Source: Flavobacteriia bacterium | Lineage (GTDB): Bacteria; Bacteroidota; Bacteroidia; Flavobacteriales; Schleiferiaceae | DNA length: 64,000 nucleotides | Reading direction: 5' to 3' | NCBI GenBank assembly: GCA_013373425.1 | Contig: JABXHW010000007.1 | Coordinates: forward strand, 3,429-67,428 | In this document: one piece after another, positions 1,434 through 17,124 of the stretch | Position numbering within the stretch: the stretch's first letter is position 1 | Layout of the letters: every line of letters starts with the position of its first letter | Translations under genes and position numbers: made by a program | Notes under the pieces: model-generated | What the model was told of the DNA's origin: nothing | Seen by the model: only the letters and a program-made list of their open reading frames with translations | Database searches by the model: none

Positions 1434-2564
1434 TTAGTTACTCATTGGAGTGATGCCAGGCAAAGGGTCTGGCTTTGGGAAGTAGGGAACCGTCACCGAA
1501 GGCATCAAGGAGGCGTCGATCGAACATCCATTGGCATCGGTCAACGAAATGAAACTGAATGTGTCGGCCGTGCCTGGCAAGTTCAATCCGTAAGAGCTCG
1601 TTGATATCACTTGAGTTTGAGTTCCGCTGCCGGTGTACTGATATTCCAATGTCCAAGGCCCGGTGCCCGTAAGCGTCAAATCCATAGTGTAGGCTTCTTC
1701 TAAGCATACAGAATCAATGGAGTAACTGACTGAAGGCAAAGGATTGACATGTATAGCCCAAACTACTTGGTTTCCCGTTCCAGCTTCTGTGGCAACAAGA
1801 GAATAATCTCCTGAAATAGTATCGAAGGTCACTTCAACGATAGAGTCATTGGACGTGAGATTATCATCGATGGTTCCTGCTGAGCCTCCTGAGAATGCCC
1901 AAGTGTAGGTCTCTGAAGAAATGTTGTATTCCGCCGTGTACAAGACTGCTTGATCGCCTGAACATACTGTGTCTTGAAAAGTGAAAGTGGCTTCACACAC
2001 TCCAGCGGAGCTTGTGCTTTCGTCGGCTACTTCTGTTCCATCGATTGAGATGTCATCAATAAGTGCGTCGGTATTTGTTCCTGTGGCACTCCAAGAAAAT
2101 ACCACCTGACCATATCCTGTGTAGGTGATATTGATGTTCTCGTTGATTGTAGTCGTTGGGTTACCGTTTGCATTGGCGTTTCCAGAGCGATAGTCGTGAT
2201 CTAGAATGGTTTGGCGCACAGTTCCAGATGGATCGATAATTTGGACCGTGATATTGGAATAGGAGCCCGAAGCATTTCTCAACTTGTGATTGAAGGAAAT
2301 CTGATTTGCAGCGCTGAAGTCCATGTACGGCCCTGTCAGGCTCGCAGTATTTGAACCCCCGGTAAATTCAACCAGACCCAGTTCAAAATCAGTCCCCGTG
2401 TTGATGGACTGTGAGCCAGGTATTTTATCAATTACAATGTTATTGAACTGCCAACAGTTTCCTTCTGACACGCTTTGGTCATCGTGATTGAAGTTCTCCG
2501 TAACCTGCGCGAGGCTAGAAAAACTGAATAACAAAAGCAGAACAACGTAACCTAAGTTTCGCAT
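1434..2564 (-). CDS. Secreted hypothetical protein with a beta-sandwich domain and Ig/PKD-like repeats
   Basis: Signal peptide from MRNLGY (ATG 2564); IDDISIDG-ended jelly-roll-like segment, then DTVCSG..YTWAFSGG and SVCLEE Ig-like segments. Confidence 0.65.
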   Translation of the reverse strand: MRNLGYVVLLLLFSFSSLAQVTENFNHDDQSVSEGNCWQFNNIVIDKIPGSQSINTGTDFELGLVEFTGGSNTASLTGPYMDFSAANQISFNHKLRNASGSYSNITVQIIDPSGTVRQTILDHDYRSGNANANGNPTTTINENINITYTGYGQVVFSWSATGTNTDALIDDISIDGTEVADESTSSAGVCEATFTFQDTVCSGDQAVLYTAEYNISSETYTWAFSGGSAGTIDDNLTSNDSIVEVTFDTISGDYSLVATEAGTGNQVVWAIHVNPLPSVSYSIDSVCLEEAYTMDLTLTGTGPWTLEYQYTGSGTQTQVISTSSYGLNLPGTADTFSFISLTDANGCSIDASLMPSVTVPYFPKPDPLPGITPMSN

Positions 2565-2717
2565 TCGTAGGAATTTCAGTCTGCTCCGGGGGAAGAGTGG
2601 ACAAAGGTTAGACTTTAACAAATCTCTTCAATTTAATTGAAAGACACACGGAAAGTGGTGTCATAAGATTCTGACATCTATGTACCTACGAAAGAAGATG
2701 GAATGCGGTTTTCCGGC

Positions 2718-3125
2718 TTATTTGGCAACGACGAATTCGCGAACTGACTCGCTGTAGATGGTTGCGTTCAGAAGTTGATCTAGATGATCGAAACGTACAG
2801 GCTTTTCGAGCTTTTCTCTAAAGCCGCTCTCTTCCCAGTTGAAGGTGTAAGTGGTATGCGTGCCGTCGGTGAGGGCTACTGTGTGCGTGTTGAGGTTGTG
2901 AAGTGTCTCGTTCATCTCACCCATGAAACTTGCTTCTTGAACCTCAGCAAGGCGAGTATCGAACATCACCATTTTAAAGTCGTGGCGTTGGAGTTCGTAA
3001 ACCGCTGCATCAAAGTTGGATACGGTAATCACAGATATGCCGCGTTTCGACAACATCTTTTCAATGATGAATCTGGAAAGATCGTTGCTCTCAGCGACGA
3101 GGACTTTGATAGTGTGGTCTTTCAT
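2718..3125 (-). CDS. Stand-alone response regulator receiver domain (atypical)
   Basis: VLVAESN, MVMFD (phospho-Asp), ALT and EKP motifs of the CheY fold. Confidence 0.8.
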   Translation of the reverse strand: MKDHTIKVLVAESNDLSRFIIEKMLSKRGISVITVSNFDAAVYELQRHDFKMVMFDTRLAEVQEASFMGEMNETLHNLNTHTVALTDGTHTTYTFNWEESGFREKLEKPVRFDHLDQLLNATIYSESVREFVVAK

Positions 3126-3395
3126 TCTACTCGTTTACTCAATGCAGTGGCTGCGCTTTGAAAGTGTAAAGAAGGACGCAGGGAGCGCCCTTCTTGTACT
3201 TGTGAATCATCTTGACAACGTAATAATCTCTCTCTCGCTCTCTCAATTGCGTTGTCATGCTCTCTCAAACAGTGATGATTGCACGGCAGATTAACTCTGC
3301 AACCTCTCAATTTGCTGAACAAACATCGGGTGTATAACTGAAGTAGAATGGAACATTTCGACGAATGGTTCAGAATCTACGATAAATGGGTAAAA

Positions 3396-5123
3396 TCAAT
3401 AAGCAAACACCATCTTCTTGGTATCAATTACCTCTTCGTTGATAATGAGTGTGTAGAAGAATACACCCTCCACGCCAAAGCCATGTTGGTATAGAATCTC
3501 ATTGATCCCACTCTCAACTGCTTTTGGTATTTCACTCAGTACTTTCCCATTGACATCGGTGATTCGAATGATGGCTCCCTTGCCAGTATATCTTTCCGGT
3601 GCATTGAATCCAATGATGGTGGCATCGTCGAATGGATTAGGTCGATTTTGTAAAAGTGTCGGCATACTCGGGCCATCACTTTCCTCCTCTATACCCACGG
3701 ACAAAAGAGAAATCTCCTCATTCGGTAAGCTCTCAAGTTGATTGCCGTCCACTGCGGCTAGAGAAACAAACATGGCACCACCAACCCCTGGGTCAATAGT
3801 GGCTTGCGTTCCTTGGAATATTATAAGCGTGTCGTAATCCGGACTGTTGGTTCTTACGACAAGACGGTAAGTGCCGTAATTATTTGGGTCTGTAACTTGC
3901 ACTTGAATACCATTCGGTACAGGGGCAGCGGTGAAGCTCGGTTGCTCCGGTCCAAGGGCTAAGACCGCGGCTGCAGTGCCATTGATCACGGCATTGCGAG
4001 ACAAGTAGTTGAAATCAACATAGAAACTGTCAATCTGGTTATCTCCATCGGTATCGACCCCTAGAATGTCTGCGGTTGTGTGCTGTCTGTCGTGATAGTT
4101 CGGGTCGGTTACCCCGGCATCGCCATGCTCATTCGCTGAGGTGAAACGCATTGCTGGGTATCCGCGGAATCGAAATGGAATATGGTCTCCACCTCGTCCT
4201 GTTCTGTCCTCTGCACTCATGATGGACAGGTTCATTGGAACTGCTGCGTTTGGCAACACTTCATCCTCGTACTCCATCTTGATGAAACGAGCTAACATCT
4301 TACTCACACTGTTGAATCCTCCATGTGAGTAGAGACGGGTTTGGGTAGAGTCGATATGATCTGGGAACGGACAACCAGGAGGCGATGCTGTATTTCCACA
4401 AATGATACCTCCAATCACGTCATTGTTTAATACGGCCTCAATTTGAAGATTGTTTTGCTGTGCAAAGATGGCAAAGGACAGGGCGCCGTAAAGTCCTTGT
4501 TCCTCACCGGTTGTTGGCATGAACACTATCGTTTGAGGAAAGCTGTACTGACTCATTACTCTGGCGAGTTCCATAACTAAAGCTGTGCCTGATGCATTGT
4601 CTTCCATGCCTGGAGCATCACACAGTACATCACAAGCCGTTTCACACCTAGAGTCGAAGTGACCTTCAATAATGATGAACGATTTATTGGATGTGTCTGT
4701 GCCCGGAAGAATTGCCATCACGTTTTTGTGACGTGTCATGTTGCACACGTTGATGTCGAATTGGAAGAATCCGGTTTGAAGACGGTTTTCATTCCTCGCG
4801 CTGTAATCTTGAAATTTGGATTCAATCCAGTTTCTCGCAGCGCCGATTCCCGTTGTAGCCGAAAGCGTATCTGATCCGGTGTTTCGATTTTCAAACGACT
4901 CAAGTTTGAGCAGAATCTGAAACAAACTGTCAGCCTGGACACCATTCTGAATTCCTGTTAGAATGGCCGAAGGTGCCGTTATGGGGGAGTTCTGTGTATA
5001 ATCGGCTGGATTGTAGTTGCCCATCAGGAGATTCATCCCATTCGGAACTTGAACTTTGAAGTTGGTTTGACCAAAGCTGAACGCGCTGATCAAAGTGAGC
5101 AGTAGGAGTAGACGTGTTCTCAT
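3396..5123 (-). CDS. M28 family metallopeptidase with T9SS type A sorting domain
   Basis: GHFDSR, GMEDNASG, GEEQGLYG, NNDVIG and GDHIPF motifs; C-terminal LQNRPNPF...G.YFY CTD; signal peptide from MRTRLL (5123). Confidence 0.9.
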   Translation of the reverse strand: MRTRLLLLLTLISAFSFGQTNFKVQVPNGMNLLMGNYNPADYTQNSPITAPSAILTGIQNGVQADSLFQILLKLESFENRNTGSDTLSATTGIGAARNWIESKFQDYSARNENRLQTGFFQFDINVCNMTRHKNVMAILPGTDTSNKSFIIIEGHFDSRCETACDVLCDAPGMEDNASGTALVMELARVMSQYSFPQTIVFMPTTGEEQGLYGALSFAIFAQQNNLQIEAVLNNDVIGGIICGNTASPPGCPFPDHIDSTQTRLYSHGGFNSVSKMLARFIKMEYEDEVLPNAAVPMNLSIMSAEDRTGRGGDHIPFRFRGYPAMRFTSANEHGDAGVTDPNYHDRQHTTADILGVDTDGDNQIDSFYVDFNYLSRNAVINGTAAAVLALGPEQPSFTAAPVPNGIQVQVTDPNNYGTYRLVVRTNSPDYDTLIIFQGTQATIDPGVGGAMFVSLAAVDGNQLESLPNEEISLLSVGIEEESDGPSMPTLLQNRPNPFDDATIIGFNAPERYTGKGAIIRITDVNGKVLSEIPKAVESGINEILYQHGFGVEGVFFYTLIINEEVIDTKKMVFAY

Positions 5124-5241: not shown

Positions 5242-7155
5242 ATGACCCCACTCAAGAAGTCTATTTTTCTCCTTTTCTCAATTGCTCTCTTCAGCTCTGT
5301 CCGGGCCCAAACACTAGATTCCACTGCGATTTGGGACACACTCAACTACTCGCTTCGAATCGTTTATTCCACTCCAGATGATGCCATGGAGTTGGTTGAA
5401 CTTGCTCAGAGTTCAGCCCAAACTTTGCGTAATGAAAGCTTGATTGCACGTTCCTACAACTTCTTGGGAATTGTGTACGACGTCAAGGGGATGCGACTTG
5501 AAGCATTGGGAGCTTATGGGATTGCACGAGCAAAGGCAGACTCCTTGAACGATACACGACTTTATGCCAGTGCTGTAAACAATATTGGATTGATTCAATG
5601 GCAGCAGGGAGACTATCGAAATGCAGTCATCAATTTTCAAGAAAGCCTCACATTGTTTGAAGAGATCGATGCGCCCAAAGGTGTGGCCAATACGCTCAAT
5701 AATATCGGACTCATATATACGGAGCAAGATCGATTGGAAGAAGCGCTAGAGTACTTCATGCGCGCATTTAAGGCCTATCAAAACATAGACGATATGTATG
5801 GTGAAAGTGCCGCATTGATGAATATCGGTCGAGCGTACGAGCAAGGCGATGTTCTCGACAGTGCGCGGAAATATATGTACCTCACATTAAACTTGAAACG
5901 AGAACTCAACGATCCACGCGGCATATCCATGAGCTATGCAAACTTGGGGGTGATTGCCGAAAAGGCAGGGTCGCTTGATTCGGGCATTTTCTATTTCGAA
6001 AAGGCCTTGGAGTTGGATGAGCAGAATGAGTTCACTTCAATTATGGCGCAGCATATGTCGGCCTTGGGTAACATGTACTTAAAGCAAGGTCGAGAAGAGG
6101 AAGCCGAAGCTATATTATTAGATGGACTCTACTATGCTGAGGAGCTTGGGGATTTGAAAACACTGTGGGGAATACACTATCGCCTGAGCGAGCTGTATGC
6201 AGGTCAAGAACAATGGCAGAAGGCTTATTATCACTCAGGTCAATATACCGCTGAATATCAAAATTGGCGGGATGAGGAAAAGGAACAGGAAATCATCAAT
6301 TTGCAAGAGCGATTTGATGTGGCGATGAAGGACGCTGAATTGGCGGAAGAGCGCAGAGATTCCGCAATTGCCGCAGCGAAGCTCAGAGAACAAAATGCAA
6401 CGATTGTCATAATCAGCGGGGTGGCAGTACTCATTCTGATTTTGGCCCTTTTCTTAGTCAGACGACTTCGCGCGCGTCAGCGTCGCTTGGCGGAAGAGCA
6501 CGCACTGAAGGAGCAGTTGAGCGCCACTTCTCACGAGGCGGAAATGGATGAGCAACGAAAAGGGATATCTCGAGATCTACACGATTCCATTGGATCGCAA
6601 CTCACTTTCCTCTCGAGTACACTCAAGAATTTGACTTGGGCCTTGCGGAATCAAAGTAGGCCTACAGAACAAACGCTAGATCGACTAGAAGAGGTTTCGG
6701 GGTATGCTCAGAAAACCGTAAGCGATTTGCGCGATACTGTTTGGGCGATGAACCGTGATGAAATGACTGTGGGTGAAATAATGCTGCGAACGGAGAACTC
6801 CGTAAATCAATATCGAGAGGCATTCGAAGGTATTCGGGTCGACTTTGAGACGAAAGGGGATGAGTTCGAACTTCTTCCAGCGAAGAAAGCCATGGCCGTC
6901 TATCGAATCCTACAGGAATCGTTGAGCAATATTCGCAAGCATTCCGCTGCCAATCAGGTTGTTATTGTTGCTGAAAGAGCCGATGATTCATGGAAATGGA
7001 CCGTATCTGACAATGGGCGAGGGTTTGATGCGTCCAAGGTTGCTAAGGGCAGCGGGTTAGAAAATCTAAAGGAAAGGGCGGCAAATGCCGACATGATTTG
7101 TACTATTGAATCAAGCATTGGAAAGGGAACTCAAATCCACTTGACTTCTGCATGA
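5242..7155 (+). CDS. TPR-repeat sensor histidine kinase (HisKA_3/NarX-like)
   Basis: Signal peptide, multiple TPRs, one TM helix, ISRDLHDSIGSQL H-box, QESLSNIRKH N-box, DNGRGF and GSGLENL G-boxes. Confidence 0.93.
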   Translation: MTPLKKSIFLLFSIALFSSVRAQTLDSTAIWDTLNYSLRIVYSTPDDAMELVELAQSSAQTLRNESLIARSYNFLGIVYDVKGMRLEALGAYGIARAKADSLNDTRLYASAVNNIGLIQWQQGDYRNAVINFQESLTLFEEIDAPKGVANTLNNIGLIYTEQDRLEEALEYFMRAFKAYQNIDDMYGESAALMNIGRAYEQGDVLDSARKYMYLTLNLKRELNDPRGISMSYANLGVIAEKAGSLDSGIFYFEKALELDEQNEFTSIMAQHMSALGNMYLKQGREEEAEAILLDGLYYAEELGDLKTLWGIHYRLSELYAGQEQWQKAYYHSGQYTAEYQNWRDEEKEQEIINLQERFDVAMKDAELAEERRDSAIAAAKLREQNATIVIISGVAVLILILALFLVRRLRARQRRLAEEHALKEQLSATSHEAEMDEQRKGISRDLHDSIGSQLTFLSSTLKNLTWALRNQSRPTEQTLDRLEEVSGYAQKTVSDLRDTVWAMNRDEMTVGEIMLRTENSVNQYREAFEGIRVDFETKGDEFELLPAKKAMAVYRILQESLSNIRKHSAANQVVIVAERADDSWKWTVSDNGRGFDASKVAKGSGLENLKERAANADMICTIESSIGKGTQIHLTSA

Positions 7156-7802
7156 ACACAACTTCGAACATCCGCTTAGTCATTGTTGAAGACCGGGCCG
7201 ACATGCGCGCGGCACTTGAAGAGAAGATTTCATTCTTCTCCGATTTGCAATGCGTGGGTGTTGCAGAAGATGGTGTGGACGGTGTTGGGCTCGTCAAAGA
7301 GGTTAAACCCGACTTAGTGCTGATGGACATTCAAATGCCCCACATGGATGGCATTGATGCTACTCTAGCGATTAAGTCTGAGCTTCCAAATGTAAAGGTG
7401 CTCATCATGACAGTGCTCGATGACAATGAACACATTTTCCACGCCATCAAGGCGGGAGCGGATGGTTATCTTCTAAAAGATGCTGATCCAAGCATGTTCA
7501 TATCTGCGGTAAACGAAGTGTTGAGTGGCGGTGCGCCAATGAGTCCAAATGTGGCTCGTAAGGCTTTGAACTTACTTCGCTCTGGTTCCGAGCCAGAGCG
7601 CGAACAAGCCAATCCACTTTCAGAGCGTGAACTCGAAATACTCATGGAGTTAAGTCGTGGACACGTGTATACTCAAGTGGCCGAAACCCTCACAATTGCT
7701 CCTTCTACTGTTCGAAAGCACGTAGAAAACATCTACAAGAAGCTTCAGGTCCACTCGAAGATTGAGGCGATTGATCTAGCTCGAAAACGAGGTCTTTTCT
7801 AA
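7152..7802 (+). CDS. NarL/LuxR family response regulator
   Basis: Receiver (VEDR, LMDIQMP, GYLLKD) plus LuxR HTH (LSERELEIL...TVRKHVENIYKKL); 4-bp overlap with the kinase. Confidence 0.95.
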   Translation: MNTTSNIRLVIVEDRADMRAALEEKISFFSDLQCVGVAEDGVDGVGLVKEVKPDLVLMDIQMPHMDGIDATLAIKSELPNVKVLIMTVLDDNEHIFHAIKAGADGYLLKDADPSMFISAVNEVLSGGAPMSPNVARKALNLLRSGSEPEREQANPLSERELEILMELSRGHVYTQVAETLTIAPSTVRKHVENIYKKLQVHSKIEAIDLARKRGLF

Positions 7803-7885: not shown

Positions 7886-9178
7886 ATGAAAAAGAGATAC
7901 GCCTTACTATTCATAGCCAGCTTGATAGCTAGTGCGCTCACCGCACAATGGACTCCTCTTGGAATCACCGACTCGATTCAAAATCAATCTATAGAATCCA
8001 TTGAGGGAGTTGTGTATCACAATGGCAAGCTCTACGCGAATACCTTCCTGAATGGAATGATGGTCTCCAATGATTTAGGCGATTCATGGGACAGCCTTCA
8101 AGCGGTTGGTATCAATCACTATGTAGTGGAGATGAAATCTTACCGCGGCAGACTGCATGCATTTTGCCATATCAACGGACTCGTGGCGGGGATGTATTAT
8201 CACTCTGACGACGACGGTCTGACTTGGACCCTCGACACAGCGGGAATGCCTGAAAGCGCAATTACGGCGGGGTATCCTGCGAATTTTATCAATGTGGAAT
8301 TTGTAGGAGATTACATGCTGGCTCAAATGGGAACGCCGCTTCAACCATACTATCGTAAACACATTGATTCCACAACTTGGCATCGAATTCCCCTCTTTGA
8401 TAATCAAGGCGCAACCACCTGGTACGTCAAGAATGACACGGTGTGGACTTACAACATCTTCAATGTTTGGTACTCCGTTGATGATGGAAAAACATGGACT
8501 CAAACCCCTCATAATATTCCAAGTTTCGCTCCACGAGCCATGGCGAAAGAGGGAAGTACAATCTATCTCATTGGAGGTGGAGGATGGGGAAACCCAGGGA
8601 AATTGATGAAGAGTACGGACAACGGTGCAACTTGGAATCAAATGACTCAAATATCCACGCTCATTGATACGAGTTGGCTCAATCAACCGGCCGATATTCT
8701 AACCATGCATGTTTCAGGAGATGAGATTTACCTCTGCTCAACCAACGATGCTACCAATTCGGTTTTCAATGTTTGGTATAGTAACGATGGCGGAAATACG
8801 TTTGCCCCAGATACAGCCGGCCTTCACGTAGATCCGCACGGAACTGCGGCTATTGAGAATTGGTTTGAAGCCGAGGGATATCTATTCGCCGTGGCAAATT
8901 TTAAAGATGTGTATCGTAAAGGTGTGAGCATTGGAATCTTCGAGAATCAACAAACGGTTCATGCCTATCCCAACCCAGCTAACGAATGGATAGAGACTCC
9001 AGAAATGGAGGTTGGAACTCCATACGTAATTGTAGGCTTGAATGGTAGAGTGCACCAGGAAGGAAAGCTTCAAGAGAGTCACCGCATCTCGACGAGTGAA
9101 CTCCAAGACGGTATTTATGTGATTAGTTTTCAGACAGGTACTAGTGTGACGTCGTTGAAAGTGGTCGTCTCCCACTAA
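7886..9178 (+). CDS. T9SS type A-secreted beta-propeller protein (BNR/Asp-box repeats)
   Basis: SnDxGxTW Asp-boxes (SNDLGDSW, SDDDGLTW, SVDDGKTW, STDNGATW, SNDGGNTF); C-terminal AYPNPAN...DGIYVI CTD; signal peptide from MKKRY. Confidence 0.85.
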   Translation: MKKRYALLFIASLIASALTAQWTPLGITDSIQNQSIESIEGVVYHNGKLYANTFLNGMMVSNDLGDSWDSLQAVGINHYVVEMKSYRGRLHAFCHINGLVAGMYYHSDDDGLTWTLDTAGMPESAITAGYPANFINVEFVGDYMLAQMGTPLQPYYRKHIDSTTWHRIPLFDNQGATTWYVKNDTVWTYNIFNVWYSVDDGKTWTQTPHNIPSFAPRAMAKEGSTIYLIGGGGWGNPGKLMKSTDNGATWNQMTQISTLIDTSWLNQPADILTMHVSGDEIYLCSTNDATNSVFNVWYSNDGGNTFAPDTAGLHVDPHGTAAIENWFEAEGYLFAVANFKDVYRKGVSIGIFENQQTVHAYPNPANEWIETPEMEVGTPYVIVGLNGRVHQEGKLQESHRISTSELQDGIYVISFQTGTSVTSLKVVVSH

Positions 9179-9289
9179 AAGAGTCGCGTTGAATCGACAG
9201 GTCTTGTCGTCTACTCATCAGGTTTAGGAATTACAGAGAGTAGTTGTGATATTCAACACTATCAACGACCATTTTTTTCAACGGAAAAG

Positions 9290-9319
9290 CCCCATTGTCC
9301 TCCAGCAATGGGGTTTTTT
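9290..9319 (+). terminator. Rho-independent terminator
   Basis: CCCCATTG-N8-CAATGGGG followed by a T6 tract. Confidence 0.8.
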
Positions 9320-9485
9320 ATTTGTCTGAAGTTGAAATTCATACGGCTCATTCGTCATTCACTCCTCGATTTGAGACGTTCATTCCCTTTTCCCTGGTTC
9401 TATCGTGTCAGACTGTTGTGTTTCCCCTATTTTTGGGTTGTTCTCTACAGTCAAACTGATATTCATCGAACTATAACATACGACT

Positions 9486-9875
9486 ATGTCATCATTTGAA
9501 AAGGTGAAATCCTTCCTCCTAGAATTGGAGTATACAATTGTCGACGAGATTGAATCGGAAGGCATTGTTATCATAGAAAACGAAAACGCTGGAATCAGTC
9601 GCCTTATCTGCGATTGCGAAGACCCAATTTTGATTATTGAGTGTCCTCTTTTCCAGATCAACAATCCATCGGTTGAGTTGCTCACAGAGCTTCTTGCAAA
9701 GAACCGCGACATCGTTCACGGAGCATTTGCACTTACAGAAACCAACCTATTGATCTATCGCGACACACTTCAATTGGAGAACCTCGACTTGAACGAGTTG
9801 GAGGGAACATTGGATTCGTTCGAGCTTTTGCTCGCCGAGTACGCAAGTCGTCTAATCGAAATTTCAAAAATTTAA
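9486..9875 (+). CDS. YbjN / CesT-like (T3SS chaperone fold) protein
   Basis: 129-aa acidic protein with LLAKNRDIVHGAF...YRDTLQLENLDLNEL pattern; first gene of the PspA operon. Confidence 0.75.
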   Translation: MSSFEKVKSFLLELEYTIVDEIESEGIVIIENENAGISRLICDCEDPILIIECPLFQINNPSVELLTELLAKNRDIVHGAFALTETNLLIYRDTLQLENLDLNELEGTLDSFELLLAEYASRLIEISKI

Positions 9876-9878
9876 AAT

Positions 9879-10577
9879 ATGAGTCTGTTTCAAAGAATTT
9901 TCAAAATCGGTCAGTCTGAGGCCAACGCCTTAGTCGACAAACTTGAGGATCCTATCAAACTCACCGAACAAGGTATCCGTGATTTGAAAAAGGACCTCGA
10001 CAATAGCCTCAAAGCTCTTGCTGAAGTGAAGGCCATCGCCATCCGCAGCAAGCGCGACATGGAGGAAAACAACAACAAAGCGCGTTCGTACGAAGCGAAA
10101 GCCATTCAACTACTTCAGTCTGCCAAAGAAGGCAAGATGGATAGTGCTGAGGCCGATCGCCTAGCAACAGAAGCGCTCAACCGCAAGGAAGAAGTTTCTC
10201 GCGCAGCCACAGTGAATCAAGAGAATTACACGAAGCTGCAAACACAAATCGACTCTCTCAATACGAACGTTGAGAAAATCAAGTCGAACATTGCCAAGTA
10301 CGAGAACGAGCTCAAAATCTTGAAAGCTCGCGCAAAGGTGAGCTCTGCTACTAAAAAGCTGAACAAGTCGATGACCAACATTGATAGCAACAGTACGGTT
10401 TCTATGCTCGAGCGCATGAAGGACAAAGTAGCTGAAGACGAGGCTTTGGCCGACGCTTACGGCGAAATGGCTCTTCAGAGCCGTAGCATCGATGAAGAAA
10501 TCGACGAGGCTTTGGATTCATCTTCATCTGCTGGCAGCGATGCCTTGGCAGAATTGAAGGCCAAGCTGAACAAGTAA
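9879..10577 (+). CDS. pspA: PspA/IM30 (Vipp1, ESCRT-III-like) family protein
   Basis: Amphipathic MSLFQRIFKIG, LEDP..L.Q.IRDL motif, long coiled coils, terminal DALAELKAKL. Confidence 0.92.
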   Translation: MSLFQRIFKIGQSEANALVDKLEDPIKLTEQGIRDLKKDLDNSLKALAEVKAIAIRSKRDMEENNNKARSYEAKAIQLLQSAKEGKMDSAEADRLATEALNRKEEVSRAATVNQENYTKLQTQIDSLNTNVEKIKSNIAKYENELKILKARAKVSSATKKLNKSMTNIDSNSTVSMLERMKDKVAEDEALADAYGEMALQSRSIDEEIDEALDSSSSAGSDALAELKAKLNK

Positions 10578-10580
10578 GCC

Positions 10581-11117
10581 ATGGTATTCGGCTTCTTCAA
10601 GAAGAAAAAACTGGAGTACGATCCAACGGATCTCTCCGTCAGAGACCTAAAGCCTGGCTTTATTTTCGACTACGACCTCCGCGATTGGGAGGTGAAAGAA
10701 ACCAACACCTACGATTGGGGTGGAGAGTGTTTCTCGTGGGACCACAAGATTACCGATGGGAAGGATACGTTCTTCCTCGGAGTGGAAGAAGATGACGGAC
10801 TGGACATTTGTCTCATGAAACCTATTTCTATTCGCATGCTCAACATCAATCCGATGGATGAGTATGCGTCTAGAGGGACATTACCCAATCAGCTGATTGT
10901 AGATGGAGAACTCTTCGAACTCGATGAGGAAGCTCCTGGATATTTCGGTAGTGGAGTAGAACCCAAAGAATGGACGGAAATGATCAATTACGATTATGTT
11001 TCGGCCAAAGATTCATCGCGCTACCTCTGCATTGAACAATACGGAGGACGCGAATTTGAAGCGAGCATAGGTCATGAAATACAGTCCTATGAAATCTCAA
11101 GAATAAACCCTTCCTAA
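10581..11117 (+). CDS. DUF4178 domain protein
   Basis: DLKPGFIFDYDLRDWEV..YDWG...W..Y.Y pattern and position directly after pspA. Confidence 0.75.
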   Translation: MVFGFFKKKKLEYDPTDLSVRDLKPGFIFDYDLRDWEVKETNTYDWGGECFSWDHKITDGKDTFFLGVEEDDGLDICLMKPISIRMLNINPMDEYASRGTLPNQLIVDGELFELDEEAPGYFGSGVEPKEWTEMINYDYVSAKDSSRYLCIEQYGGREFEASIGHEIQSYEISRINPS

Positions 11118-11119
11118 CT

Positions 11120-11863
11120 ATGTTCCAAGGCGAGAAATTCTTCTCTGTCCTGCTCTTTGTGGGATTCGTAGGAGTCATCGTTTACGTAATCAATCTCAAT
11201 TCGAGTGCCGTAAGCGAAGAAGGCTTAGAAGTCTTCCAAAAACAACATCAAGACGAAAGTGAATACACCATTCTGCTCACAGACATGGATTATCACGACG
11301 ACAAGTACTGGCACAAGTACAAAATGCTCATCGATCGTGGTATTGGCGATGACGGTGAGGTTCGTTTCGATTCAATAGAGACAGCAGACTGGATGAGAGT
11401 CTCTCCACCGTTTTTCAAGAAGTATGAAAATGCGCTTGGAATGGAAATCTCAAGAAGCACCAATGGAATTGTAACGAATTCTGTTGCTCCTCCGGGTTAC
11501 TCAGGATATGTAGGGAATGATCGATATGGAGAATGGAGAACCGATTCACACGGCCACTCCTTCTGGCATTTCTACGGACAATACATGTTCATGCGTCATT
11601 TCTTTATGACCAGCTATTACGGTCCAACTCGCACCAGTTGGAGAAACTACGACGAGGGCTATCGACGAAACCGAAGGGACTATTATGGTCCGACGGGCAC
11701 TTTTGGAACCGGGAGATACACAACCCAGGGTCCAGGGAAGCGATCCACTTGGGGCAATCGCTCTGAGTCGTTTAAGAGCAATGTGCGCTCAAGAGTTACA
11801 CGCTCTTCGAGTAGGTACTCTGGCTCTTCGTCGCGTTCAAGAAGTGGTGGATTTGGTAAATAA
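11120..11863 (+). CDS. Membrane-anchored hypothetical protein with basic Arg/Ser/Gly tail (YjfM/DUF1190-like)
   Basis: N-terminal TM helix, SFWHFYGQYMFMRHFF segment, C-terminal ...SSSRSRSGGFGK. Confidence 0.7.
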   Translation: MFQGEKFFSVLLFVGFVGVIVYVINLNSSAVSEEGLEVFQKQHQDESEYTILLTDMDYHDDKYWHKYKMLIDRGIGDDGEVRFDSIETADWMRVSPPFFKKYENALGMEISRSTNGIVTNSVAPPGYSGYVGNDRYGEWRTDSHGHSFWHFYGQYMFMRHFFMTSYYGPTRTSWRNYDEGYRRNRRDYYGPTGTFGTGRYTTQGPGKRSTWGNRSESFKSNVRSRVTRSSSRYSGSSSRSRSGGFGK

Positions 11864-11871
11864 GAAGCAGT

Positions 11872-12768
11872 ATGGGAGATTCTATTTGGTTGACAAACAC
11901 TTGGCAAACCGCAGTTTATATTCTCGCTGCCTTTGCCCTCATTTTTATAGCTCGCCACTTTTTCATGTTCTTCAAAAAAGGACTTGATTTCAAGCACGAG
12001 CTTCTCGAAGAAGATAATTTCGCCTTTTCCATTTCGGTGGTGGGCTATTTTGTTGCGGTACTTATCTCTGTAGGTAGCGCAATTGTTGGTCCTACGCACG
12101 GTTTCGGATTGGACCTCATGTTCCTCATGGTGTATGGGTTGTTCTCCATCATCCTTCTCACGCTATCTGCGGGTATCAACGACAAGTTTATTTTGAGAAG
12201 ATTTTCGGTTCGCAAAGAGATTCATAAAGATCACAATGCCGGCACCGGTGTGATTGTAGGAGCGAATTACATAGCATCCGCGTTGATCATTTTTGGTGCT
12301 ATGACTGGCGCTGGAAAAGACTTCTTTCCTGATGTAACCCTAGGCTTCTTGTATTCCGGAATGATCACCGCTGGTGTGTTCTGGTTGGCTGGTCAACTGC
12401 TCATGGTGATTTTTACATGGGTTTACGATTTAGTTACCCCGTACAATCTTCACGATGAAGTAGAGAAGGACAATGTAGCCGTGAGTTTAGCTTATGCAGG
12501 TATGATCATCGGCGTAGGTCTGCTCATCTTCAACGGTGTAAGTGGCGACTTTTATTCTTGGGAAGATCACTTCATGTGGCTCGGAATTGAAGTAGCCATT
12601 GGATTGGTCCTTCTTCCAATCATCCGCATGATTGTAGACAAGATTCTACTGCCAGGCAGGAATATTACCGATGAGCTCGTCAATCAAGATAAACCTAACC
12701 TAGGCGTTGGATTGATTGAAGGGTTTGCCTACTTCGGAGGTGCGTTGCTCATCATTCTGAGCATCTAA
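11872..12768 (+). CDS. DUF350 (YjfL-like) multi-pass membrane protein
   Basis: Repeated helix-hairpin units ending in 'EL.E.DN.A' type motifs (ELLEEDNFA, EIHKDHNAG, EVEKDNVA, ELVNQDKPN). Confidence 0.85.
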   Translation: MGDSIWLTNTWQTAVYILAAFALIFIARHFFMFFKKGLDFKHELLEEDNFAFSISVVGYFVAVLISVGSAIVGPTHGFGLDLMFLMVYGLFSIILLTLSAGINDKFILRRFSVRKEIHKDHNAGTGVIVGANYIASALIIFGAMTGAGKDFFPDVTLGFLYSGMITAGVFWLAGQLLMVIFTWVYDLVTPYNLHDEVEKDNVAVSLAYAGMIIGVGLLIFNGVSGDFYSWEDHFMWLGIEVAIGLVLLPIIRMIVDKILLPGRNITDELVNQDKPNLGVGLIEGFAYFGGALLIILSI

Positions 12769-12777
12769 AAAGCACAG

Positions 12778-14319
12778 ATGAAAACGAGGTCGACACTCTT
12801 AAAGGCGGCGCTTTTTGCTACCGGTTTCTCGGGCATTGTTGCGGAGTATGTGCTGGCCACTTTGGCGAGTTACTTCCTCGGCGATAGTATCGTCCAATGG
12901 GCAGTGGTGATTTCGCTTATGCTCTTCTTCATGGGTGTGGGTGCAAGATCTACGCGTAGCATTGAGAAGAACGTCTTTGGCTGGTTGATGGGTACAGAGT
13001 TTATGCTGTCCATCATTGTATCGACCTCCGCATTGCTGACCTATGCCTTTGCGGCGTACAGCGACTATACCGGAATTCTGATTTATGGAATTTCAGCATT
13101 AACGGGTTTGATGATTGGTATGGAATTGCCCTTGGCGATCCGACTGAACAATCGGTATGAAGTGCTGCAAGTCAATGTTTCCAATATTCTAGAAAAGGAC
13201 TACTACGGCAGTTTGCTCGGTGGTGTGTTCTTTGTCTTCGTAGGGCTTCCTTACCTCGGATTGAGCTATACTCCCATCGTCTTAGGGATTATCAATTTGA
13301 TGGTAGGTGTGGCCTTGTTGAACGTGTTCCCGGCCTTTGGCAAGTGGAGCAAGTTGAGGTGGAACGCGCTAGCTGGAGTATTGCTCATTGGGGTGAGTTC
13401 CACTTTTTGGTTCGCCGATGACGTGATTCTCTTCGGAGAGCAGCGCAACTATCGAGATAAAATCGTTCTGGATTTGCAAACGCGCTATCAAAAGATTGTG
13501 ATGACACAATGGAAGAACGATTACTGGTTGTACCTTAATAAGAATCTCCAATTTTCCACATACGATGAGCCGCTCTATCACGAAGTGCTCGTCCACCCCG
13601 CGATGAGCTTGCATCCGAATCCAATGCATGTTGGCGTACTCGGTGGAGGTGATGGGTGCGCCGTTCGTGAGATTTTAAAGCACGAAGATGTTCGTCAAAT
13701 AAGCTTGATAGACTTGGATCCGGAGATGGTCCGTTTGGGCAGGACGAATGATGTTCTGCTTCGAACCAACGACTCGTCCTTCTACGACTCCAAAGTGAGT
13801 ACTTACTCGGATGATGCCTTCCATTTTATGGATACCACAAGGGCGATGTTCGATGTGTTGATAATCGACTTACCCGACCCGCGGAATGTGGAGTTGAGCA
13901 GATTGTATAGCTACGAGTTCTACGAGATGTGCAAACGTCACCTTCGTCCGGGTGGATTGCTAGTCACACAAGCAGGTAGTCCTTACTTTGCTCCAAAGAG
14001 CTTCGCTTGTATTGACACCACATTGAAGAAGGCCGGTTACAGCACACTTTCCATGCACAACAACATCGTCACCATGGGCGAATGGGGTTGGGTGATTGGA
14101 GCCACAGATTCAATCGGTTCCGACCAGATGATTGATAGAATGGAGCAGTTTGATTACGATGAACTGGAGTTGCGCTGGTTGAATGGTTCGGCCATTCGTC
14201 AGATTACTTCATTTGGTAAACAGTACTTCCAAACCTTTGGCGAGGAATTGAAACCAAACCACATACACGACCCGGTTTTGTACCGCTATTATTTGAACGG
14301 AACGTGGGATTTATATTGA
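12778..14319 (+). CDS. speE: Polyamine aminopropyltransferase (spermidine synthase) with N-terminal multi-TM domain
   Basis: About 7 N-terminal TM helices, then TRYQKI, LQFSTYDE..YHE, VLGGGDG, IIDLPDP and GEWGW motifs. Confidence 0.9.
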   Translation: MKTRSTLLKAALFATGFSGIVAEYVLATLASYFLGDSIVQWAVVISLMLFFMGVGARSTRSIEKNVFGWLMGTEFMLSIIVSTSALLTYAFAAYSDYTGILIYGISALTGLMIGMELPLAIRLNNRYEVLQVNVSNILEKDYYGSLLGGVFFVFVGLPYLGLSYTPIVLGIINLMVGVALLNVFPAFGKWSKLRWNALAGVLLIGVSSTFWFADDVILFGEQRNYRDKIVLDLQTRYQKIVMTQWKNDYWLYLNKNLQFSTYDEPLYHEVLVHPAMSLHPNPMHVGVLGGGDGCAVREILKHEDVRQISLIDLDPEMVRLGRTNDVLLRTNDSSFYDSKVSTYSDDAFHFMDTTRAMFDVLIIDLPDPRNVELSRLYSYEFYEMCKRHLRPGGLLVTQAGSPYFAPKSFACIDTTLKKAGYSTLSMHNNIVTMGEWGWVIGATDSIGSDQMIDRMEQFDYDELELRWLNGSAIRQITSFGKQYFQTFGEELKPNHIHDPVLYRYYLNGTWDLY

Positions 14320-14320
14320 T

Positions 14321-14626
14321 ATGAAAGCAGCGATTTATAACTATACCGCCTGGATTGAGGAGTGTGAGCCATTTCGCATTGCACGGGCTATGGATGTGTT
14401 GCTTGATGAAGCTGGCTTTCATGTGCTCCAATTCACCGATCATCATTTTGAACCGCAAGGTTACACGGCTATTTGGCTGTTGAGTGAAAGTCATTTAGCC
14501 GTTCACACCTTCCCAGAAGAAGGGAAGACGTACATTGAATTGAGCAGTTGTAACTTTGAGAAGAACGAGACCTTCGAGAAGGAACTTAGTCGTGCTGAAT
14601 TCACACTAACTACAGCTAGCGAATGA
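14321..14626 (+). CDS. speD: S-adenosylmethionine decarboxylase proenzyme (short, pyruvoyl-dependent)
   Basis: HHFEPQGYT..WLLSE/SHLAVHTFPE self-cleavage motif and downstream SSC. Confidence 0.88.
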   Translation: MKAAIYNYTAWIEECEPFRIARAMDVLLDEAGFHVLQFTDHHFEPQGYTAIWLLSESHLAVHTFPEEGKTYIELSSCNFEKNETFEKELSRAEFTLTTASE

Positions 14627-15663
14627 ATTTTGGGAAGCGCAAATATTGGATATGGGGCGTGTTGACCGCGCTGTTTTTCCTGTTGCTCTATCTCATTCAA
14701 GCTGTAGAATCTCAGGACCCTAATAGCAGCATTAAAAACATGTGGGATGCCTTCTGGTATTCTATTGTTACGCTGACAACTGTTGGTTATGGGGATAGCT
14801 TCCCGGTTACTGTTACCGGGAAGATTTTGGGCCTCATACTCATCTTTATGAGTTTAGGTCTGCTCAGTGTACTCATCGGAAACATCGCATCGCAAATCAA
14901 TCGTTATATGGAACGCAAACGCTTGGGTTTCTTCGGAACCAATGAAACCAATCACATTGTGATCATCGGGTGGAACGACATCGGCCGATTGATTGTGGAG
15001 CAGGTGATTCAAGCCGGGCAATCGGTGGTGGTTGTATCTGAAAAGAAAGAAGCCATTGAGCGCTTAAATGAGGATTATCCCGAGCGCGTCTTCGGCGTTC
15101 ATGGTGAGAAAGTATGGAGTGCCGAATCGGTGGAACGCGCGAAGATGAACGAAGCCTCTTCCATTTACATCAACGTTTCCGACGACAGCGCAGCCTTGGT
15201 TACTTTGATCAACATCCGCCAGCATTGCGCCAACGCTCAGATTGTTGTCCGCCTCACCAATACCGATTTGAAGAGCACATTCTTGAACGCTGGTGCTACC
15301 TATATCATCCCTGAGCAGGAAATCAGTTCCAAGCTTGCCGCGAGTTTCCTCTTTGAACCCGAAGTGGCTTTATTTACTGAGGATCTCATTACAACGGCAG
15401 GGGACGACAATGAGAACTTCGATTTGCAGCAGTACCGCGTTACGGAAAGCAGCCCGGTTGCTGGCTGGGATTACGGTCGCGCTTTCACGGAAATCAAGAA
15501 AGACTACAACGCTATTCTCGTTGGTCTATCCAAAGGCCAGAAGCTTCACAAGAACCCGGCAGATGATACCCGAATTGACAATGGGGATTACTTGCTTTTG
15601 ATTGCCAACGGCGCTAGCCAGGGGCAGTTGGAGAAGGCGTTTGGAGTGAAGCAGGGGAGGTGA
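14623..15663 (+). CDS. Two-TM potassium channel with RCK (TrkA-N/TrkA-C) domains
   Basis: TVGYGD selectivity filter, IIGWNDIG Rossmann-like RCK start, C-terminal HKNP..D..I..GD.LLLI. Confidence 0.92.
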   Translation: MNFGKRKYWIWGVLTALFFLLLYLIQAVESQDPNSSIKNMWDAFWYSIVTLTTVGYGDSFPVTVTGKILGLILIFMSLGLLSVLIGNIASQINRYMERKRLGFFGTNETNHIVIIGWNDIGRLIVEQVIQAGQSVVVVSEKKEAIERLNEDYPERVFGVHGEKVWSAESVERAKMNEASSIYINVSDDSAALVTLINIRQHCANAQIVVRLTNTDLKSTFLNAGATYIIPEQEISSKLAASFLFEPEVALFTEDLITTAGDDNENFDLQQYRVTESSPVAGWDYGRAFTEIKKDYNAILVGLSKGQKLHKNPADDTRIDNGDYLLLIANGASQGQLEKAFGVKQGR

Positions 15664-15669
15664 GTATAC

Positions 15670-15697
15670 AAAACAGCCACACATAGGTGTGGCTGCT
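15670..15697. repeat. Hairpin/terminator, copy A of AAAACAGCCACAC-N4-GTGTGGCTGCT
   Basis: Lies between the convergent K+ channel and methyltransferase genes; arms identical to copy B at 16818-16845. Confidence 0.85.
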
Positions 15698-15725
15698 TGT
15701 TTAATGGCTCTAGCTTTTAGTTGAT

Positions 15726-16583
15726 TTAGAGACCTTTTGAACTAGCTTTTGTTGCGATGGTGAACAAGACGTTTTTCCCACTAAAGGGATCGTCTCCCAG
15801 TACGATGTCATCTTCGAATTCGACATCTCCAAATGAACTCGTGCTAAGAATGTCTTGGATAGAGTTTTCATCGTAGAAGTGATTCCAGAATCGATAGGTT
15901 TTGACACCACCGCTCTCCTCACATATGATGTGTTGATAGAGTATTACATCAGCTTCAGGATAATGAAAACTACTGGAAAGAGTTAGATGGGCCTCATTAC
16001 TCCAAAATCCAGAAGAAGCACAGCCCCAATTTATTGGACTCACTTTAGACGCAATCTCATTTTTTCTGAGAACATCAAAGATGAACTTTCCACCATCATT
16101 CAGAGATTTCGCCACTTTTTCAATTAGAAGTAATCTCTCTTTTGGAAGCAACGGCCCAAAATCGGTGTATATCAATAGCACCAAATCATACTCTTCAGTG
16201 CCTAGGTCAAGATCTAGATAGCTTCCGTGACGGTAATCTATATCTAGCCCTTGTTCAATACTACTTTGCTTTGCGTATTCTATGGAATTTAAGGAGATGT
16301 CCATCCCCGTTACAGAATGCCCAGCATTGGCAAGTATTTCTGAATATAAACCTGGTCCACAGCCTAAGTCTAGAATTTTCAACTTACGATCTGGTGCGTG
16401 TTCATCGAGTATCCAATTGATGGTTGCATGAATTGACTCTGGCTTTCTGCTCGCCAGGTCAATTTCAGGGTTTAGGTGTACTTCTAGTAGTTGTTTTGCG
16501 ATATGTGGGTCAGTCCACATGAATGCGTTGCCCGCTTCATAAAGTGCAGGTTGACTTGATGACTTCAGAATCTCTGATATCAT
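15726..16583 (-). CDS. Class I SAM-dependent methyltransferase (lower-GC cargo)
   Basis: ILDLGCGPGLY motif I; MWTDPHIAKQLLE.HLNP..D.ASR N-terminus; spot counts of three 60-nt lines give 35-42% GC versus about 48% in a flanking line. Confidence 0.9.
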   Translation of the reverse strand: MISEILKSSSQPALYEAGNAFMWTDPHIAKQLLEVHLNPEIDLASRKPESIHATINWILDEHAPDRKLKILDLGCGPGLYSEILANAGHSVTGMDISLNSIEYAKQSSIEQGLDIDYRHGSYLDLDLGTEEYDLVLLIYTDFGPLLPKERLLLIEKVAKSLNDGGKFIFDVLRKNEIASKVSPINWGCASSGFWSNEAHLTLSSSFHYPEADVILYQHIICEESGGVKTYRFWNHFYDENSIQDILSTSSFGDVEFEDDIVLGDDPFSGKNVLFTIATKASSKGL

Positions 16584-17042: not shown

Positions 17043-17052
17043 CTAAAACTTG

Positions 17053-17124
17053 TTGCCCGACTAGGACTCGAACCTAGACTGACTGAACCAAAATCAGCTG
17101 TCCTGCCAATTAGACGATCGGGCA
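17053..17124 (-). tRNA. tRNA-Gln (anticodon TTG)
   Basis: Cloverleaf: TGCCCGA/TCGGGCA acceptor stem, GCTGA-TT TTG GT-TCAGT anticodon arm, CTAGG-TTCGAGT-CCTAG T arm; CCA not encoded. Confidence 0.97.

Follow-up and report, generated by a model that had tools for sequence, protein, structure and literature searches.

We report that eight genes at positions 9486-15663 of a 64,000-nucleotide stretch from a Flavobacteriia bacterium of the Schleiferiaceae (GenBank assembly GCA_013373425.1, contig JABXHW010000007.1, positions 3,429 to 67,428; this whole stretch is called the window below) form an operon-like unit which, judged from its sequence, is a Bacteroidota member of a published operon class (Ravi et al., 2024; PMC11237479). 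The genes, numbered g1 to g8 in the order in which they stand, are predicted to encode a small chaperone, a PspA-family protein, a DUF4178 protein, an anchored protein with a basic tail, a DUF350 membrane protein, a membrane-fused aminopropyltransferase, an S-adenosylmethionine (AdoMet) decarboxylase and a K+ channel (Table 1). We read this operon as a dedicated membrane aminopropylation system joined to PspA, DUF4178, DUF350 and the channel, and would put the probability of that reading at roughly 0.6. What our analysis would add to the published class is the Gly-Lys end of g4, the fusion of DUF4178 to g4-type proteins, an outward topology of g6 suggested by loop charges, the nested linkage of the genes, the replacement of one channel by another and a separate arginine decarboxylase (ADC)/SpeY route to polyamine in the same genome.

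Conservation and layout of the operon

One genome per species was scanned with an alignment of g6 relatives; it yielded 520 relatives, and only the 80 best-matching loci were taken further. These best 80, at 50-67% identity, all belong to Bacteroidota bar one from Rhodothermaceae. The eight window proteins were placed on the related loci by tblastn, and gene order was counted in the 51 loci having at least 4 kb of sequence upstream and at least 3 kb downstream. The full set of eight genes was found in identical order in 23 of the 51 loci and genes 1-7 in a further 10, the remaining loci being nested subsets; co-conservation, which a first reading of this DNA from its letters alone (the original prediction) had left to a neighbourhood survey, is thus borne out. 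The shared order spans several Bacteroidota families at 35-65% protein identity, the carriers being Lentimicrobiaceae, Saprospiraceae, Marinifilaceae, Flavobacteriaceae, Salinivirgaceae, and Marivirga with other Cytophagales, and the median gaps between genes in the related loci are 11-84 nt. Since the gene order recurs across families, far beyond chance, and the gaps are short in the relatives, the set is an operon-like conserved unit. Linkage to g6 is nested (last column of Table 1): the core consists of g6, g5 and g4, followed in decreasing order by g3, g7, g1/g2 and g8.

In the window itself all eight open reading frames (ORFs) lie on the plus strand, where the original prediction had placed them, and the gaps from g1 to g8 are 3, 3, 2, 8, 9, 1 and -4 nt, the last pair (g7/g8) overlapping by 4 nt, which confirms the tight co-oriented packing that had been described. 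Profile searches of Pfam and NCBIfam named seven of the eight genes and left g4 without a family. The identities first proposed held up at the level of families, apart from g1, which by its scores (147 vs 28 bits) is better labelled CesT/Tir-like than YbjN-like. The two boundary hairpins of Table 1 have no comparable hairpin within the eight-gene set, and base composition is even over the operon region.

Table 1. Genes and boundary elements of the operon (window coordinates), with the number of related loci in which each gene is linked to g6.
Feature	Position	Strand	Description	Profile match or role	Linked to g6
g1	9486-9875	+	CesT/Tir-like (YbjN-like) small cytoplasmic chaperone, 129 aa	CesT_Tir_1 PF22550, 147 bits; YbjN PF10722, 28 bits	41/60
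g2	9879-10577	+	PspA/IM30 family, 232 aa	PspA_IM30 PF04012, 152 bits	42/60
g3	10581-11117	+	DUF4178 protein of 178 aa, lacking both signal peptide and transmembrane (TM) segments	PF13785, 75 bits	49/60
g4	11120-11863	+	anchored protein, 247 aa: N-terminal TM anchor, small beta-rich domain, aromatic segment, Ser/Arg/Tyr/Gly-rich basic tail		54/60
g5	11872-12768	+	integral membrane protein of 298 aa with a duplicated DUF350 (YjfL-type) and 8 predicted TM	PF03994, 171 bits, two stretches	56/60
g6	12778-14319	+	polytopic membrane domain (residues 1-220) plus aminopropyltransferase (SpeE-like) domain, 513 aa	NF002956/PRK03612, 530 bits (cut-off 472)	
g7	14321-14626	+	class-1b S-adenosylmethionine decarboxylase proenzyme, 101 aa	AdoMet_dc PF02675, 60 bits (over Pfam cut-off)	49/63
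g8	14623-15663	+	2TM + RCK potassium channel (MthK-like), 346 aa	Ion_trans_2 PF07885, TrkA_N PF02254, TrkA_C PF02080; TVGYGD	31/63
Hairpin	9284-9319	+	terminator-like, 15 pairs and T-run	closes upstream type IX secretion system (T9SS)-cargo gene; 5' boundary of unit	
Hairpin	15674-15695		GC-rich, terminator-like	between convergent channel (g8) and methyltransferase genes; 3' boundary of unit	

The aminopropyltransferase, its donor and the polyamine routes of the genome

The fusion of the catalytic domain of g6 to its membrane domain is obligate, and the protein falls under the cut-off of the speE model TIGR00417 (142 bits, cut-off 250). Its motifs for binding decarboxylated AdoMet and amine are invariant in 21 sequences (YHE, Y267-H268-E269; GGGDGC, with GGGDG at G289-G293; DLPDP, D364-P368); they align to solved enzymes, and both Asp residues of DLPDP are intact. 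The nearest solved relatives of the catalytic domain are the thermospermine synthase ACL5 (6BQ2) and the triamine/agmatine aminopropyltransferase of Thermus thermophilus (1UIR/3ANX), which share a D-L-x-D-P type motif with g6 and accept acceptors larger than putrescine, while classical spermidine synthases ranked lower. Both of these relatives are soluble cytoplasmic enzymes, whereas in g6 a membrane domain of 220 residues is added, and the C-terminus has an extension that is invariant. The partner enzyme, g7, scores under the equivalog TIGR03330 (48 bits vs 75.65); its pyruvoyl-forming Glu-Ser cleavage site and its catalytic His and Cys align with those of T. maritima 1TLU (LSESHLAVHTFPE...SC), ESH...[ST]C is retained in 53 of 60 orthologues, and g7 is predicted to be the supplier of decarboxylated AdoMet.

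The source genome (3.09 Mb, 96% complete) contains no SpeE or SpeD besides g6 and g7. Neither was a carboxyspermidine dehydrogenase/carboxyspermidine decarboxylase (CASDH/CASDC) route found there: the nspC model matches lysA alone, and the Sacchrp_dh protein of contig 28, which lacks both an NCBIfam name and a CASDC partner, stays unassigned. On contig 65 (L089) an arginine-decarboxylase-like pyridoxal phosphate enzyme (1010-2401) is directly followed by a deoxyhypusine-synthase homologue (2441-3418). Homologues of this type have been named SpeY and form homospermidine (PMC10407285), and the ADC/SpeY pair is probably a route to the bulk triamine, homospermidine, that is separate from the operon. 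PRK03612-type enzymes were detected in just 16 of 401 sampled genomes of the phylum, representing 12 of 180 genera. As this patchy distribution is unlike that of a housekeeping gene, and as a separate ADC/SpeY route appears to exist, we infer that g6 and g7 constitute a dedicated aminopropylation module and not the bulk polyamine pathway.

These results bear on two claims of the original prediction. The proposal that a lipid or a protein, and perhaps not a free polyamine, receives the aminopropyl group would fit the kinship of the SpeE domain to thermospermine/triamine-type enzymes, the separate ADC/SpeY pair and the other acceptor that Li and co-workers reportedly inferred in 2019. Membrane-tethered spermidine synthesis, the label first given to the locus, is probably mistaken: bulk spermidine is an unlikely product, and the loop charges of g6 suggest that the catalytic domain may face the periplasm.

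Membrane topology of g6

Hydropathy gives six to seven hydrophobic segments in g6, compared with eight in g5. Loop charges were expressed as the mean number of Lys and Arg residues per loop across 78 orthologues, and are 3.0 at the N-terminus, 0.0 in loop 1-2, 2.7 in loop 2-3, 0.0 in loop 3-4, 3.0 in loop 4-5, 0.0 in the conserved GLSYTP turn and 3.8 in residues 184-200. Under the positive-inside rule this pattern fits seven TM segments, an N-terminus on the inside and a catalytic domain on the outer face. The AlphaFold2 (AF2) model of residues 1-228 (membrane domain, 12778-13461; 57 sequences; predicted local distance difference test, pLDDT, 88) has six long helices, one of them of 50 residues. 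It should be noted that the hydrophobic stretch 144-184, which is a single helix in this model, is at 40 residues too long for one pass and has invariant Gly and Pro residues inside. A Foldseek search with the model returned a weak likeness to halves of major facilitator superfamily (MFS) proteins (PepT2, FLVCR, VMAT, NorA), with a TM-score of about 0.5 and E no better than 0.01; this likeness would make the catalytic domain of g6 cytoplasmic. Four acidic residues of the membrane domain (E23, E74, E116, D141) are invariant; the domain also has a conserved acidic loop that is predicted to be cytoplasmic, and its most conserved segment is GLPYLGLTYTP, whose predicted position is at the interface, beside the catalytic domain.

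We lean towards an outward, periplasmic catalytic domain. If this is right, the enzyme and the g4 tail would share one side of the membrane, and the cationic donor might pass through the membrane domain. Otherwise the chemistry would take place in the cytoplasm, and the basic tail of g4 might reach g6 through its marginal aromatic segment.

The anchored protein g4 and its Gly-Lys end

No Pfam or NCBIfam model matches g4, and a profile search with it returned only Bacteroidota entries named 'hypothetical' or 'lipoprotein', without Pfam domain. Its AF2 model (pLDDT 78) found no match in a fold search of the PDB (best E = 0.3, TM-score < 0.15). The orthologues carry a lipoprotein-type signal, and at least 90% of them have its lipobox Cys; g4 of the window has no lipobox Cys and instead carries an uncleaved anchor, and hydropathy shows no second TM segment in it. 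The aromatic motif PAGYSNYVGNxKYGxW...SFWxFYGQYAFMSSMF is conserved among the orthologues, whose tails have a median length of 95 residues with medians of 20 Lys+Arg and 2 Asp+Glu, compared with 18 and 4 in the tail of the window protein. All 187 g4 sequences end in Gly-Lys (67/67 locus orthologues and 120/120 database representatives), mostly as GGFGK. Because the side chain of Lys resembles half of putrescine, so that aminopropylation would turn it into a spermidine-like group, the terminal Lys of g4 is the best candidate acceptor for g6.

The PspA-family protein g2 and its neighbours g1 and g3

The PspA-family protein g2 stays under the cut-offs of the PspA and LiaH equivalogs (TIGR02977, 42 vs 243; NF045984, 46 vs 380) and is 24% identical to E. 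coli YjfJ over the full length (E = 3e-10). On these scores it is a member of a YjfJ-like branch of the PspA family and not the orthologue of E. coli PspA or B. subtilis LiaH. The CesT/Tir-like g1, which stands beside PspA in 41 of 60 loci, is probably its partner. No sequence relative of the DUF4178 protein g3, which is predicted to be cytoplasmic, was found in the PDB.

In two Saprospiraceae loci DUF4178 and a g4-type protein are a single ORF, with DUF4178 N-terminal and a hydrophobic TM helix joining the two parts (L018:5134-6432, 432 aa; L026:7657-8928, 423 aa). The fusion argues for a joint action of DUF4178 and g4 from the two sides of the membrane, DUF4178 lying in the cytoplasm and the domain of g4 on the outside.

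The K+ channel and its replacement

TVGYGD is present in 45 of 45 orthologues of g8, whose best PDB matches are MthK, the Ca2+-gated channel of Methanothermobacter, with which it shares the 2TM-RCK architecture and TVGYGD. The Ca2+ ligands D184/E210/E212 of MthK align to N/R/T, so that by this alignment g8 is a channel of the RCK-gated type and not an orthologue of the Ca2+-gated MthK. After SpeD in eight Flavobacteriaceae loci, from Tenacibaculum, Polaribacter, Algibacter, Flavicella and Psychroflexus, the place of the MthK-like channel is taken by a 6TM voltage-gated-type (Kv-type) K+ channel without RCK (PF00520, 129 bits; TVGYGD; S4-like RILRLFRLLRIFKLGR; L050 at 12607-13407, L055, L060, L064, L068, L072, L076 and L078). 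A DUF3592 protein precedes this channel in L050 and L055. Counting both types, a K+ channel is found at 39 of 63 loci (31 MthK-like and 8 Kv-type). That a non-orthologous channel takes the same position in eight loci argues for a functional link between K+ channel and operon, albeit a facultative one.

Relation to known systems

Among the CesT/Tir-PspA operons surveyed by Ravi et al. (2024, mSystems; PMC11237479) this class is the second major group, composed of genes for a CesT/Tir-like protein, PspA, DUF4178, a lipoprotein with a Ctha_1186 domain and a low-complexity tail, an 8TM YjfL/DUF350 protein, a 7TM-fused Spermine_synth protein and, sometimes, a ribbon-helix-helix (RHH) regulator; the example given is the neighbourhood of Shewanella oneidensis SO_3765 (AAN56746.1). 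The window operon agrees with it in its adjacent CesT/Tir and pspA genes (3-nt gap), 7TM-fused synthase, 8TM DUF350 and DUF4178. It differs in gene order, as it starts with chaperone and PspA and has the enzyme late; in its g1, which is of the CesT_Tir_1/YbjN type and not DUF2170; and in the absence of an RHH regulator ORF from the operon, which ends at the channel and the terminator. Compared by description only, the lipoprotein of the second group has an architecture like that of the g4 orthologues, with lipobox Cys and low-complexity tail, whereas g4 of the window has its uncleaved anchor in place of the lipobox. The window operon also adds an AdoMet decarboxylase and a K+ channel, both of which the paper mentions for its third group only. 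This third group, of the E. coli yjfI-yjfC type, has a glutathionylspermidine-synthetase-like ATP-grasp enzyme, a K+ channel, DUF350, DUF1190 and DUF2491, with AdoMet decarboxylase and polyamine oxidase present in variant forms (PMC11237479). The same authors propose that such systems monitor or alter polyamines for membrane stability, and mention the aminopropylation of other substrates (PMC11237479). The expectation that neighbourhoods of PspA and polyamine genes had already been noticed in comparative surveys was therefore correct, and the idea of an envelope-stress system built on polyamines, reached anew from the window, is a restatement of their hypothesis.

The layout of the E. coli yjfIJKLM-yjfC operon is as the original prediction described it and runs parallel to that of the window, with YjfJ as PspA homologue, YjfL as DUF350 protein and a polyamine-type enzyme closing the operon. 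Only PspA and DUF350 are demonstrably shared. YjfC is an ATP-grasp peptide--spermidine ligase (RefSeq name) and not an aminopropyltransferase, whereas the window operon has no ATP-grasp gene; YjfL has 4 TM against 8 in g5, and the E. coli operon is without SpeD or channel. Homology of g4 to YjfM (DUF1190; hhalign probability 1%), of g3 to YjfK (DUF2491; 2.6%) and of g1 to YjfI was not supported. In E. coli K-12 yjfM (L090:7388-8026) and its Enterobacterales relatives an anchored, Cys-rich acidic domain is followed first by a short stretch of hydrophobic residues and then by a Ser/Gly/Arg tail. The YjfM/DUF1190 tail carries SRGG[YF]GR, which resembles the g4 end SRSGGFGK, and ends ...ARG[HS]WGG in 33 of 41 full-length relatives.

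An older line of work touches the core of the operon. Thousands of class 1b AdoMet decarboxylase genes were reportedly found by Li and co-workers in 2019 to accompany a fusion of a membrane protein with a spermidine-synthase-like domain, together with DUF350, and this trio matches g5, g6 and g7 of the window. The carrier species are said to be without spermidine, and the fusion is said not to complement an E. coli speE mutant, from which another acceptor was inferred. That acceptor was reportedly left without a name, and PspA, g4, the channel context and the Gly-Lys tail are said to form no part of that account. For the link to AdoMet decarboxylase Ravi et al. (PMC11237479) cite this work of Li et al. 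(Biochem J 476:2579).

Proposed mechanism and alternatives

In the mechanism that we propose, g7 would make decarboxylated AdoMet in the cytoplasm and g6 would use it at the membrane, aminopropylating an amine other than putrescine, while the bulk polyamine would probably be homospermidine from the ADC/SpeY pair elsewhere in the genome. The best acceptor candidate would be the invariant C-terminal Gly-Lys of g4, giving a Lys with a spermidine-like side chain, with a lipid head-group or an exported diamine as the alternatives. The catalytic domain of g6 and the tail of g4 would both be periplasmic, and the cationic donor would cross the membrane by way of the polytopic domain, in which acidic residues are invariant. 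Sensing or protecting the bilayer, from the cytoplasm and from within the membrane, would fall to PspA and its chaperone together with DUF4178 and DUF350, while ion flux or membrane potential would be adjusted by the K+ channel.

Several points weigh against this mechanism. PspA (42/60) and the MthK-like channel (31/63) are not found at all related loci, which weakens the case for tight mechanistic coupling to them. The AF2 model of g6, with its likeness to MFS halves, would place the catalytic domain in the cytoplasm and so opposes the topology drawn from loop charges, and an extracytoplasmic AdoMet-type enzyme would, to our knowledge, be without precedent. The g4 tail is highly basic (net charge about +18), which is unusual in an exported segment. 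Finally, the genome has no other SpeE or SpeD, leaving room for a plain spermidine role.

The first alternative is vectorial synthesis and export, in which g7 and g6 make a free polyamine (spermidine, a thermospermine-like product or an aminopropylated diamine) that the transporter-like membrane domain of g6 releases at the outer face. There it would coat anionic lipids and make the envelope more stable, with PspA guarding the inner leaflet and the channel balancing the charge. We consider it unlikely, though with a tangible chance of being right. It draws on the intact catalytic motifs, including both Asp of DLPDP, on the four invariant acidic residues and the MFS-half likeness of the membrane domain, on the status of g6 and g7 as sole SpeE and SpeD of the genome, and on the suggestion of Ravi et al. 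that polyamines are monitored or altered for membrane stability (PMC11237479). The same MFS likeness is weak (E at least 0.01, TM-score about 0.5), and export leaves unexplained both the invariant Gly-Lys end and the tight linkage of g4 to g6, which is like that of DUF350. The lack of spermidine in carrier species and the failure to complement an E. coli speE mutant, as reported by Li and co-workers, also speak against it.

A bolder reading, and an unlikely one, is a protein-tail aminopropylation machine on the outer face of the cytoplasmic membrane. Here g6 would move decarboxylated AdoMet made by g7 outwards and modify the terminal Lys of g4, and the resulting tethered polycation would have the envelope or the K+ channel as its target; it might, for instance, plug the pore from outside with its lysine, a device known from scorpion toxins. 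Operons of the E. coli type would then be analogous, with YjfC ligating spermidine to the tail of YjfM.

Aminopropylation of a lipid head-group, in which g6 would modify the amine of phosphatidylethanolamine or of an ornithine or serine lipid and so lower the net negative surface charge in envelope stress, like the changes of the MprF/EptA type, appears improbable. The enzyme is embedded in the membrane, the conserved GLPYLGLTYTP lies at the predicted interface beside the catalytic domain, and Bacteroidota are rich in amine-bearing lipids; we know of no aminopropyl-lipid that has been reported, and the invariant Gly-Lys end of g4 would be unexplained. The mention of aminopropylation of other substrates by Ravi et al. 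speaks for it (PMC11237479).

It is equally improbable that g6 and g7 simply make the cell's spermidine as a housekeeping operon to which the PspA, DUF and channel genes are mere neighbours. Such a role would agree with the presence of only one SpeE and one SpeD in a genome that is 96% complete and lacks a detectable CASDH/CASDC route, and with the name 'polyamine aminopropyltransferase' given to g6 by the NCBI model. It is at odds with a gene order that keeps PspA, DUF4178, g4 and DUF350 together across families at 35-65% identity, with the obligate membrane-domain fusion, with the ADC and SpeY alternative route, with the restriction of PRK03612-type enzymes to 16 of the 401 genomes and with the findings reported by Li and co-workers.

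An anti-phage abortive-infection module, with PspA and the K+ channel depolarising or repairing the membrane on infection, is very improbable, for it has only the name of PspA ('phage shock') and an ion channel to recommend it, PADLOC gives coiled-coil noise and a methyltransferase-fold match only, and the locus has no defence-island context, an even base composition and a vertically conserved order. A phage origin was likewise rejected, as viral contigs contain no membrane-fused SpeE and carry soluble SpeE catalytic domains only.

The locus itself will be no surprise to a specialist. PspA and ESCRT-III membrane repair is well studied and has a widespread tie to polyamine-type enzymes, and what the membrane-fused aminopropyltransferases modify has been a standing question since 2019. 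The Bacteroidota version is compact and complete, comprising a donor-making enzyme, a transferase, a candidate acceptor with its Gly-Lys end and a channel, and the acceptor question is directly testable in this operon. An acceptor that proved to be a protein lysine or a lipid would mean an envelope modification of a new kind, and a catalytic domain that is truly periplasmic would be the first case of AdoMet-type chemistry beyond the cytoplasm; if g6 and g7 simply made spermidine, the finding would be ordinary.

Promoter region and neighbouring genes

About 50 nt 5' of the first ATG stands TATTTTTG (9429-9436, plus strand), a match to what we take to be the Bacteroidota -7 consensus, TAnnTTTG, and a weak lead only. 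A scan for sigma-70-type promoters gave chance-level scores only, promoter repeats or palindromes did not match beyond 6-10 nt, and no Rfam element (riboswitch or leader RNA) was matched across 9000-16000. The hexamer TCATTC occurs three times in 9349-9387, past the terminator at 9284-9319 and ahead of the putative -7 box, as a tandem pair (TCATTCGTCATTCA) and a third copy about 25 nt further on; these copies may be a regulator site or may be due to chance.

Two genes recur beside related loci and have no counterpart in the window. One, on the same strand and right after SpeD or the channel in 21 loci, encodes a rhomboid intramembrane protease (PF01694; e.g. L015:11919-12461). The other, seen in 12 loci (e.g. 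L015:5394-6134), lies in either orientation at about 0.5-1 kb upstream from the CesT-like gene and encodes an XRE-type HTH_3 protein of 246 aa, which may be a regulator in the carrier lineages.

Upstream of the operon in the window are genes for a TPR-HisKA_3 histidine kinase and a LuxR/NarL-type response regulator, of the class that includes LiaSR (5242-7802); the gene for a T9SS-sorted BNR protein and the terminator stand between this pair and the operon. The pair was rejected as dedicated regulators of the operon since it is not a conserved neighbour in related loci, the apparent kinase matches in Salinivirgaceae being a TPR-SpoIIE phosphatase that matches via its TPR domain alone. Downstream, the minus strand carries a tRNA-Gln (TTG) gene at 17052-17124, between genes for a SAM-methyltransferase and an acyltransferase.

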